Origin: a virus
Lineage: Duplodnaviria > Caudoviricetes
DNA: 64,000 nt
Virus record (IMG/VR): IMGVR_UViG_3300031784_000006
Direction: 5' to 3' (one strand)
Part shown: positions 243 to 1,560 of the stretch, piece after piece
How the letters are laid out: each line of letters opens with the position of its first letter
How positions within the stretch are numbered: the stretch's first letter is position 1
The notes under the pieces: model-generated
What the model was told of the DNA's origin: nothing
The model's input: the letters and a program-made list of their open reading frames with translations, nothing else
Databases searched by the model: none
Made by a program: the position numbers and the translations under genes

Positions 243-243
243 G

Positions 244-317
244 CGTCCTTTGAGAGATTCGAACTCCCGACACATAGGTTCGTAGCCTACTGCTCTGTTC
301 CACTGAGCTAAAAGGAC
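244..317 (-). tRNA. trnR: tRNA-Arg(ACG)
   Basis: Cloverleaf with acceptor GTCCTTT/AAAGGAC, anticodon arm GTAGG CT ACG AA CCTAT, TTCGAAT T-loop. Confidence 0.95.
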
Positions 318-320
318 AAG

Positions 321-392
321 TTCTGAGAGTAGGATTCGAACCCACGAATGGCGGGACCAAAACCCGCTGCCTTACCACTTGGCGACCTCAGA
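321..392 (-). tRNA. trnQ: tRNA-Gln(TTG)
   Basis: Acceptor TCTGAGG/TCTCAGA, anticodon arm GCGGG TT TTG GT CCCGC. Confidence 0.95.
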
Positions 393-464
393 AGCCCTCA
401 GTCGGATTTGAACCAACGACCTACTCATTACTAGTGAGTTGCTCTACCACTGAGCTATAAGGGC
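393..464 (-). tRNA. trnT: tRNA-Thr(AGT), unusual A34 anticodon
   Basis: Acceptor GCCCTTA/TGAGGGC, anticodon arm ACTCA CT AGT AA TGAGT. Confidence 0.92.
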
Positions 465-466
465 GG

Positions 467-537
467 GGTGCCGTGAGGGAATCGAACCCTCATATAGAGA
501 ACCACAATCTCCTGTCTTACCATTAGACTAACGACAC
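467..537 (-). tRNA. trnH: tRNA-His(GTG)
   Basis: Acceptor GTGTCGT/ACGGCAC, C73, anticodon arm GGAGA TT GTG GT TCTCT. Confidence 0.93.
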
Positions 538-538
538 A

Positions 539-612
539 AGGCAGTAGATAGATTTGAACTATCGACCATAGGCATATGAGACCCGTGCTCTGCCAGACTG
601 AGCTATACTGCC
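539..612 (-). tRNA. tRNA with CAT anticodon (elongator Met or lysidine Ile2)
   Basis: Acceptor GGCAGTA/TACTGCC, loop CT CAT AT; anticodon stem imperfect (CGGGT/GCCTA). Confidence 0.85.
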
Positions 613-615
613 AAA

Positions 616-704
616 CGGAAGTGGTTGGATTCGAACCAACGGATGCCTATAAAGACATCGGCGGATTAGCAATCCACTGCATTAGACCTCTCTGCCACAC
701 TTCC
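616..704 (-). tRNA. trnS: tRNA-Ser(GCT)
   Basis: Anticodon arm GTGGA TT GCT AA TCCGC, long variable arm, G73. Confidence 0.95.
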
Positions 705-758
705 TTAATGTTGCCTTCAATTAACCTAAGTGCGATTTAGGTTGCCTCAAGACAACAA

Positions 759-831
759 TGGAAACAACTGGACTCGAACCAGTGGTCTTTCGATTATCAG
801 TCGAATGCTTTACCAACTAAGCTATGTTTCC
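759..831 (-). tRNA. trnI: tRNA-Ile(GAT)
   Basis: Acceptor GGAAACA/TGTTTCC, anticodon arm TTCGA CT GAT AA TCGAA. Confidence 0.95.
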
Positions 832-832
832 T

Positions 833-907
833 TGGTATTCCTAACGGGATTCGAACCCGTGCTGCCACCTTGAAAGGGTGGTGACCTAACCGCTAGTCGA
901 TAGGAAC
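833..907 (-). tRNA. trnE: tRNA-Glu(TTC), CCA encoded
   Basis: Acceptor GTTCCTA/TAGGAAT followed by ACCA, anticodon arm CCACC CT TTC AA GGTGG. Confidence 0.95.
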
Positions 908-955
908 TTAATGCTGACGGCATTCTGGATTATCAGCTCCAGCGCAAATCAGCAA

Positions 956-1029
956 CGACCCATACGGGATTTGAACCCGTGTTCTCCACCGTGACAGGGT
1001 GGCGTGATAGACCGCTACACTAATGGGTC
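956..1029 (-). tRNA. trnD: tRNA-Asp(GTC)
   Basis: Acceptor GACCCAT/ATGGGTC, G73, anticodon arm CCACC CT GTC AC GGTGG. Confidence 0.95.
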
Positions 1030-1033
1030 AAGG

Positions 1034-1105
1034 TGGGACATCTCGGATTCGAACCGAGGACTAATCGGTTAAAAGCCGAATACTCTACCGCTGAGTTAAT
1101 GTCCC
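1034..1105 (-). tRNA. trnK: tRNA-Lys(TTT)
   Basis: Acceptor GGGACAT/ATGTCCC, anticodon arm TTCGG CT TTT AA CCGAT. Confidence 0.95.
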
Positions 1106-1162
1106 AATAATGTGATAGATATTCAGTTGTCGATGTGCTGGTGGTCTCTCAACCACCCTTTA

Positions 1163-1235: not shown

Positions 1236-1262
1236 GAGGAAACTTTTGGTTTCTCTCCCCTG
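1236..1262 (-). terminator. Intrinsic terminator
   Basis: GGGGAG AGAAACCAAAAGTTTC CTCCCC followed by TTTTTT. Confidence 0.75.
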
Positions 1263-1292
1263 TCTTTTGCTTTTATGGATTACATCTTACAT

Positions 1293-1388
1293 ATGTCTTT
1301 CCATTTCAGCAAACAGGGGAGTACCCTCAATATGCCATTCGCGGCAATCGAGATTACTAATCTGTTTGATGGTGATTTGGAAAGACAT
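1293..1388 (-). ncRNA. Candidate multi-branched structured RNA (alternatively a 33-aa smORF, 1388..1287)
   Basis: Perfect 11-bp closing stem ATGTCTTTCCA/TGGAAAGACAT, nested CAAACAG/CTGTTTG, CTCGAT/ATTGAG and TGCC/GGCA stems; has its own promoter and terminator. Confidence 0.55.
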
Positions 1389-1409
1389 TGTTTTCGACCT
1401 AAGTGTGTT

Positions 1410-1440
1410 TATTTATAAGACTTTTATTTAAAAAAGTCAA
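1410..1440 (-). promoter_or_regulatory. Overlapping sigma70-like (TTGACT-17-TATAAA) and T4 late (TATAAATA) promoter
   Basis: Minus strand TTGACTTTTTTAAATAAAAGTCTTATAAATA. Confidence 0.7.
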
Positions 1441-1531: not shown

Positions 1532-1560
1532 ATTCTACTACTCCTTTTTACAGGTGTCAA
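1532..1560 (-). promoter_or_regulatory. sigma70-like promoter TTGACA-17-TAGAAT for tRNA-Arg(TCT)
   Basis: Near-consensus hexamers with 17-nt spacing. Confidence 0.75.

Follow-up and report, generated by a model that had tools for sequence, protein, structure and literature searches.

A probable ribosome-mediated, tRNA-sensing attenuator at the head of the main tRNA block of a T4-like cyanomyovirus

What is the function of a short structured element that lies among phage tRNA genes and encodes no tRNA? The window analyzed here is a stretch of 64,000 nucleotides of viral DNA. Its nrdA and nrdB genes are ~78% identical to their counterparts in Synechococcus phage S-SM2, and the window is part of a T4-like cyanomyovirus. 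The element is on the minus strand, between tRNA-Arg(UCU) (1512-1441) and a ten-tRNA block headed by tRNA-Lys (1105-243). The initial annotation presented it as a stand-alone transcription unit encoding a 96-nt multibranched RNA or a sequestered 33-aa peptide. We propose instead, with a probability of roughly 0.8, that it is a ribosome-mediated, tRNA-sensing transcription attenuator of the phage's main tRNA block. This reading builds on the parts of the unit, their conservation and covariation, the match between its codons and the tRNA genes, and a folding model of the switch.

We collected homologues with blastn and with pattern scans, for which the core, the leader or the terminator served as anchor. 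The result was at least ~270 complete loci, with at least 166 distinct in-frame units. By blastn, the whole unit is found in S-PM2 (73% identity, E=2e-21, with the same neighbours) and also in S-CREM1. Homologues are nearly always 5' of a tRNA block, usually headed by tRNA-Lys. Of the 118 untruncated loci in the first homologue set, 114 have a tRNA in the 700 nt downstream, and 111 have tRNA-Lys there. The customary upstream neighbour is tRNA-Arg(UCU), adjacent in 76 of 124 loci. A tblastn search with the leader peptide fails to recover even S-PM2, and searching with a 14-nt loop pattern gave chance matches only. An exact-pattern scan of 185,579 prokaryote genomes returned three chance matches and one true copy. 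This copy (L442), from an Acidibacter metagenome bin, lies on a contig of 1 kb and is probably misbinned phage DNA.

Homologues keep both the reading frame and the pairings: the ORF stays open and the helices covary. The leader ORF has 33 codons (1388-1287, minus strand) and its ATG lies inside an 11-bp closing stem, as first described. Its length varies from 31 to 37 codons, and it is open in each complete copy, apart from one frameshifted copy. Since 88 loci do not fit the core nucleotide pattern and their ORF is open too, the open frame is not only an effect of the search. The stop codon is 23-34 nt ahead of the terminator G-run in 165 of 167 units. In S-CREM1, the leader ORF is annotated as hypothetical SCREM1_59.

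Other reading frames cross the same region. At the end of the ORF (1280-1292, minus strand), two Met-stop hexamers follow in tandem, each in its own frame. In 108 of 167 units, no stop interrupts the +1 frame along the ORF, and the frameshifted copy (L217) terminates at the second stop. In S-PM2, the sense leader is unannotated; the annotated frame is S-PM2p162 (L001 2862-3218), antisense over the leader and tRNA-Arg. This antisense frame has 118 aa in S-PM2 and 47 aa in the present copy. We consider it a probable shadow ORF and not a gene, because it runs through tRNA-Arg and its ends are not conserved.

Between clades, almost nothing of the peptide sequence is conserved; what is kept is its length and its amino-acid variety. 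No family for it is present in Pfam, PHROGs or the ESM Atlas. The PDB holds no significant relative, and a match to mitochondrial NDUFB3 (E=0.18) was treated as chance. A profile search of 1.84 billion proteins found family members, three long repeat proteins and nothing else. These results bear on the possibility of a functional micropeptide controlled in the manner of a type I toxin, where the mRNA restricts its own translation by folding back and the terminator is constitutive. Such a peptide would agree with the conservation of the ORF, of its Shine-Dalgarno (SD) sequence and of a core motif around codons 14-20 in most copies. It would also agree with the finished RNA, where a fold-back hides the SD and the start codon, as in hok- or aapA-like toxin mRNAs. 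However, several clades have lost the core motif and retained the architecture, and residues at both ends of the peptide change together as the RNA pairing dictates. A type I toxin peptide is hydrophobic and conserved, whereas this one is polar, varies across clades and is without family or significant structural relative. The micropeptide also leaves unexplained the 2:3 helix and the codon-tRNA match described below. We therefore regard it as very unlikely.

Transcription would start close to the ORF. The dual promoter reported initially is present at 1410-1440. It consists of a sigma70-like -35 hexamer (1440-1435) with a 17-nt spacer, and an overlapping T4-type late motif, TATAAATA (1417-1410). 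The late motif is nearly invariant across homologues, although it was partly a criterion for selecting them. Among 131 distinct upstream regions, 83 have the overlapping -35 and 13 a tandem sigma70 site. In S-PM2, the late motif is known and overlapping early and late promoters have been described (PMC2984593). An early idea was that the -35 is merely one arm of a post-tRNA hairpin; it is weakened, because the spacing is correct in most copies. A putative sigma70-type promoter (11/12 consensus match) at 1532-1560, minus strand, 5' of tRNA-Arg(UCU), may likewise direct transcription into the leader. On the plus strand, a consensus scan gave no match near the unit for a promoter of an antisense antitoxin RNA.

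The SD-like AGGT is at 1397-1400, 8 nt 5' of the ATG. It lies 7-8 nt ahead of the ATG in 154 of 167 units, some of which were collected using AGGT as a search pattern. According to the fold model, the SD and the ATG are unpaired at 0.5-0.86 in nascent RNA versus 0.31 in finished RNA. The nascent RNA would therefore admit a test ribosome, and the released leader would later be silenced.

The ORF folds into a 96-nt unbranched rod (1293-1388), which in the finished RNA extends to bury the SD and the ATG. Its 11-bp closing stem pairs 1388-1378 with 1303-1293. The folding energy of the 98-nt stretch is -40.3 kcal/mol (z=-7.1), and none of 200 shuffles was as stable. The 11-bp, 3+7-bp and 6+4-bp stems of the initial annotation are present. 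Its multibranched topology does not hold. The small 3-bp hairpin has a pairing probability of ~0.0002 and no covariation, and its bases pair within the unbranched rod. Along the rod, 88.7% of cells are paired and 14 of 45 pairs are altered on both sides (0/500 shuffles). The covariation shuffles ignore relatedness, so they are supportive and not probabilities. RNAalifold on the raw alignment recovers the apical hairpin, which is invariant among homologues, and the terminator, but no longer helices. The longer helices thus rest on single-sequence folds plus pair counts.

The intrinsic terminator is at 1227-1260, with its stem at 1260-1233 and its U tract at 1232-1227. This confirms, with adjusted limits, the one previously located at 1236-1262. 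In two copies (L167, L439), the inner terminator hairpin is inverted relative to the others, and the G-run and C-run are retained.

No tRNA overlaps the unit, in agreement with the first description. A cmscan-type check found no Rfam family overlapping it, neither at gathering score nor as a credible match to E<=10. The best Rfam 15 match (E=0.22) is driven by the terminator and scores 26.6 bits against a cut-off of 60. The T-box model (Stem I specifier loop, antiterminator bulge) gave no match at gathering score or E<=10. By these Rfam and peptide tests, the unit is neither a T-box nor a known Rfam RNA nor a type I toxin.

The phage T4 provides another candidate. Its species 1 and 2 RNAs (rnaC, rnaD) are stable RNAs that arise by processing and are not known to have a leader ORF or a switchable terminator. 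They share with the unit that they are small structured non-tRNA elements in a T4-like tRNA cluster, a likeness by description. The unit could be a trans-acting structured sRNA of this kind, with an incidental reading frame. The very stable rod, the invariant apical hairpin, the unit's own promoter and terminator, and the location in a tRNA cluster would fit such an RNA. Nevertheless, length changes within the ORF preserve the frame, and the SD and the stop position are kept. Amino-acid variety and a codon-tRNA match cannot come from RNA function alone, and Rfam holds no match. We give this sRNA even less weight than the micropeptide.

The second half of the ORF has two exclusive partners. It can pair with the first half and the leader (1:2), or with the post-stop spacer and the 5' arm of the terminator (2:3). 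In the second case, codons 23-33 pair with the spacer and the terminator G-run (1255-1321, minus strand; -29.5 kcal/mol, z=-6.2), forming an antiterminator. The 1:2, 2:3 and 3:4 helices are mutually exclusive, and covariation is present in both 1:2 and 2:3. For 2:3, 17 cells are doubly changed versus 5.4 expected. A more diverse alignment gives 48 versus 20.7, where the pair count alone is not significant. The duplex is found in 16 of 16 clade representatives, in the same place relative to the stop, with -25 to -36 kcal/mol. Compared with codon shuffles, its z values there are -1.9 to -5.2, and the ORF's own tail is usually among the best partners. The rod is thus the 1:2 hairpin, or anti-antiterminator, of an attenuator whose 2:3 antiterminator the initial annotation missed. 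The unit does have its own promoter and terminator. Its independence is doubtful, because the 5' arm of the terminator has a conserved alternative partner inside the ORF.

We modelled the switch by masking the ribosome footprint and allowing only the downstream RNA to fold. In the present copy, the terminator has a probability of 1.0 without a ribosome and with the ribosome from codon 21 onward. With the ribosome at codons 5-19, the antiterminator reaches 0.7-0.99. At equilibrium, 103 of 166 units switch in this model; termination occurs in 161 without a ribosome and in every unit once a ribosome sits at the stop. The model shows no switch at equilibrium in 63 units, S-PM2 included, once region 4 is made, and this counts against the attenuator. 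These copies would need a kinetic head start, with 2:3 forming before region 4. In a looser model, pairing is allowed both 5' and 3' of the ribosome, and the stall window of the present copy narrows to codons 5-8. Shuffling the codons of the ORF costs the terminator in 1 of 150 cases. As long as region 4 is still missing, 166 of 166 units capture the G-run when the ribosome is at codon 8 or L-16, and no unit does so when it is at L-8. At equilibrium, 63% of the nascent RNAs also capture it without a ribosome, as do 66 of 150 codon-shuffled ORFs, so this test is weak.

The stretch where stalling would flip the switch, region 1, comprises codons 5-20 (1329-1376, minus strand). Amino acids are encoded there nearly once each, by codons that match the downstream tRNAs. 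The peptides have a mean of 18.4 different amino acids, versus 14.4 in 33-residue windows of the present phage's proteins. All 20 amino acids are present in 13 of 127 peptides, which are related copies and not independent. The present copy alone has 18 (P=0.03 only). Likewise, the 15 codons ending 13 before the stop encode a mean of 13.1 different residues versus 9.8. The block's tRNAs read 80% of the sensing codons, 52% of the last 12 codons and 46% of the nrdA codons.

In the present copy, the sensing stretch has no Tyr or Phe codons, and the downstream block has no tRNA-Tyr or tRNA-Phe. This prompted a test over 90 distinct leader-block pairs. The odds ratios between a sensing codon and its cognate downstream tRNA gene are 98 for Pro, 24 for Ser(AGY), 11 for Phe, 7 for Tyr, and 6 for both Thr(ACY) and Leu(CTC). 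In these pairs, no raw association with the cognate tRNA is seen for Cys or Met codons. We then considered relatedness, at the amino-acid level, with all variable amino acids and no codon picking. The tree was built on ~1 kb of linked sequence from which both traits are absent, and tRNAs were counted in the downstream block and not elsewhere in the genomes. Tree-independent cognate pairs are 28.3 with and 4.6 against; non-cognate pairs are 78.5 with and 64.6 against. The cognate assignment ranks 2nd of 40320 permutations (P=2/40320). The same test gave no signal in the last 12 codons (P=0.10) or in codons 2-3 (P=0.96). The codon-tRNA signal is therefore located where the folding model has stalling flip the switch.

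We prefer the attenuator over an sRNA or a micropeptide because the peptide diverges, has no family, and its codons track the downstream tRNA set. A structure-controlled short ORF, as initially suggested, is well founded in the selection on the ORF and its covarying structure. The proposed sRNA or micropeptide product is probably wrong. Most likely the peptide is a by-product.

An attenuator could also act as a general sensor, similar to pyrL. It would read ribosome speed or ribosome-polymerase distance (energy, light, ppGpp) and not single tRNAs, and the codon match would merely ease leader translation. One copy per codon is a weak specific signal, which suits this idea. The conserved Cys, Trp and His codons sit in the invariant apical hairpin and could be structural, and the Cys codon is retained in 50 units whose block has no tRNA-Cys. 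Against it, codons are gained and lost with the cognate tRNA and with no other, and this holds solely for the stretch in which a stall would flip the switch. We judge the general sensor unlikely, though less so than the micropeptide or the sRNA. With less confidence than for the attenuator itself, we lean towards a multi-tRNA sensor. It would sample each supplied tRNA once, co-evolve codon by codon with the tRNA set, and activate transcription of the tRNA genes in response to depletion or cleavage of host tRNA.

The block downstream (243-1105, minus strand) encodes tRNAs for Lys, Asp, Glu, Ile, Ser(GCU), Met, His, Thr(AGU), Gln and Arg(ACG). The late motif is absent inside it and is found in 4 of 102 blocks among homologues. 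Upstream of the block, a putative promoter at 1163-1219 combines a conserved motif (1219-1197) with an extended -10 (1171-1163), by consensus match. The extended -10 pattern is present in 151 of 160 distinct spacers. The -35 is poor. The conserved motif is a near-palindrome, possibly a binding site or a phage early-promoter element. In short-spacer lineages (S-CREM1 = L303; L277, L165, L171, L276 and others), a sigma70 promoter is built into the terminator, with the -35 in the hairpin loop and the -10 at the U tract. We had supposed that homologues with short spacers do without a downstream promoter, but 11 of 12 have one, which overlaps the terminator. Because the block has its own putative sigma70 promoter, overlapping the terminator in some lineages, the terminator would not be the sole gate.

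Just 5' of tRNA-Lys, a hairpin is followed by a conserved unpaired motif (1122-1157, minus strand), present in 144 of 160 homologous spacers. It resembles the boxB-boxA antitermination signal of rRNA operons and includes a candidate boxA. If so, it would suggest that host Nus factors are used on the tRNA block.

The arrays show further particularities. The tRNA-Thr at 393-464 has the anticodon AGU (A34), rare in bacteria, and A34 Leu and Ser tRNAs are also present in homologous arrays. The spacers 705-758 and 908-955 are longer and hairpin-like, at slots that hold Pro/Phe or other tRNAs in relatives. In L260 (1504-1596) and similar loci, ARAGORN mislabels as tRNA-Arg(GCG) a phage tRNA-Tyr variant whose D arm is unusual. 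We consider the Arg-GCG calls in homologous arrays as miscalled Tyr genes.

From these elements, we propose the following sequence of events. RNA polymerase would start at the dual early/late promoter. A ribosome would load at the SD and ATG while their pairing partners, ~100 nt downstream, are not yet transcribed. With rapid decoding of codons 5-20, region 2 would be covered or the 1:2 rod would form, and the 3:4 terminator would halt transcription. The absence, lack of charging or cleavage of any of ~15 different tRNAs would make the ribosome linger in region 1. The 2:3 helix could then capture the terminator G-run, and the polymerase would enter the tRNA genes. The phage tRNAs would relieve the stall, closing a negative feedback loop. 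Translation of the leader, its coupling to transcription, the direction of control and the trigger are the parts of this scheme that we infer. For Synechococcus, our literature search did not find transcription-translation coupling established (PMC7858274), a point against the attenuator.

The block has its own putative sigma70 promoter and, in most cases, no late one. What the attenuator controls is therefore most likely an additional tRNA supply, above all at late stages of infection. The leader is probably a second, conditional route into the tRNA block, and the principal one late on. Single codons are expected to sense severe tRNA loss and not mild starvation, because classical sensitivity needs many regulatory codons (PMC1183508). 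A response to severe loss would fit the tRNA depletion that occurs during infection (PMC10264068, PMC11726456), which may be the trigger.

The unit has the structural elements that define a leader-peptide attenuator: a short ORF with an SD, a 3:4 hairpin with a U tract, conserved and exclusive 2:3 and 1:2 helices, and cognate codons. Classical attenuators also cluster two or more codons for one amino acid. Here nearly all residues of the sensing stretch are different, so we consider the unit a variant attenuator and not a classical member. In E. coli, pheM-pheST is a case of leader-peptide attenuation of synthetase genes that senses charged tRNA. It would share with the unit the control of translation machinery through charged tRNA. 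However, it senses one amino acid and targets a synthetase, whereas here the targets would be tRNA genes.

The trpL, hisL, pheL, thrL, leuL and ilvL attenuators of E. coli and Salmonella (PMC1183508) share with the unit a short leader ORF, regions 1-4 and exclusive 1:2, 2:3 and 3:4 hairpins. They also share the intrinsic terminator, codons tied to what the downstream genes supply and, as far as the folding model of the phage unit goes, a stall window in region 1. Unlike them, the phage unit sits in a lytic phage and would govern tRNA genes rather than biosynthetic enzymes. It has ~15 different codons once each, not runs of one to three kinds. Its operon has a second putative promoter 3' of the terminator, and its 1:2 hairpin also buries the start codon. 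Classical attenuators need runs of one codon for sensitivity (PMC1183508); the phage leader has none, and we count this against the attenuator. T-boxes bind uncharged tRNA directly, without translation and one tRNA each, and mostly precede synthetase, transport and biosynthesis genes (PMC2494555, PMC7583486). The choice between terminator and antiterminator set by tRNA status would be common to both, but the phage unit has a leader ORF that would be translated and would respond to several tRNAs. Our literature search, mostly outside subscription journals, found no published leader attenuator that controls tRNA genes or that occurs in phages.

Why phages carry tRNAs is a long-open question, with codon compensation on one side and replacement of depleted or cleaved host tRNA on the other (PMC10264068). 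In Synechococcus, tRNA shortage alone can block a cyanophage (PMC11726456). If true, a sensor that turns on the tRNA block at a decoding stall would be direct evidence for the replacement view, and the leader codons would list the tRNAs that the phage expects to run short. Leader-peptide attenuation would be extended to a lytic phage, to tRNA-gene targets and to a design with one codon each. The unit would also be a compact reporter of tRNA status, and two cultured pairs carry it, S-PM2/WH7803 and S-CREM1/CB0101. As a multi-tRNA sensor, it would mean that the rate of decoding feeds back on tRNA genes and that the phage has an inducible answer to defences directed at tRNA.
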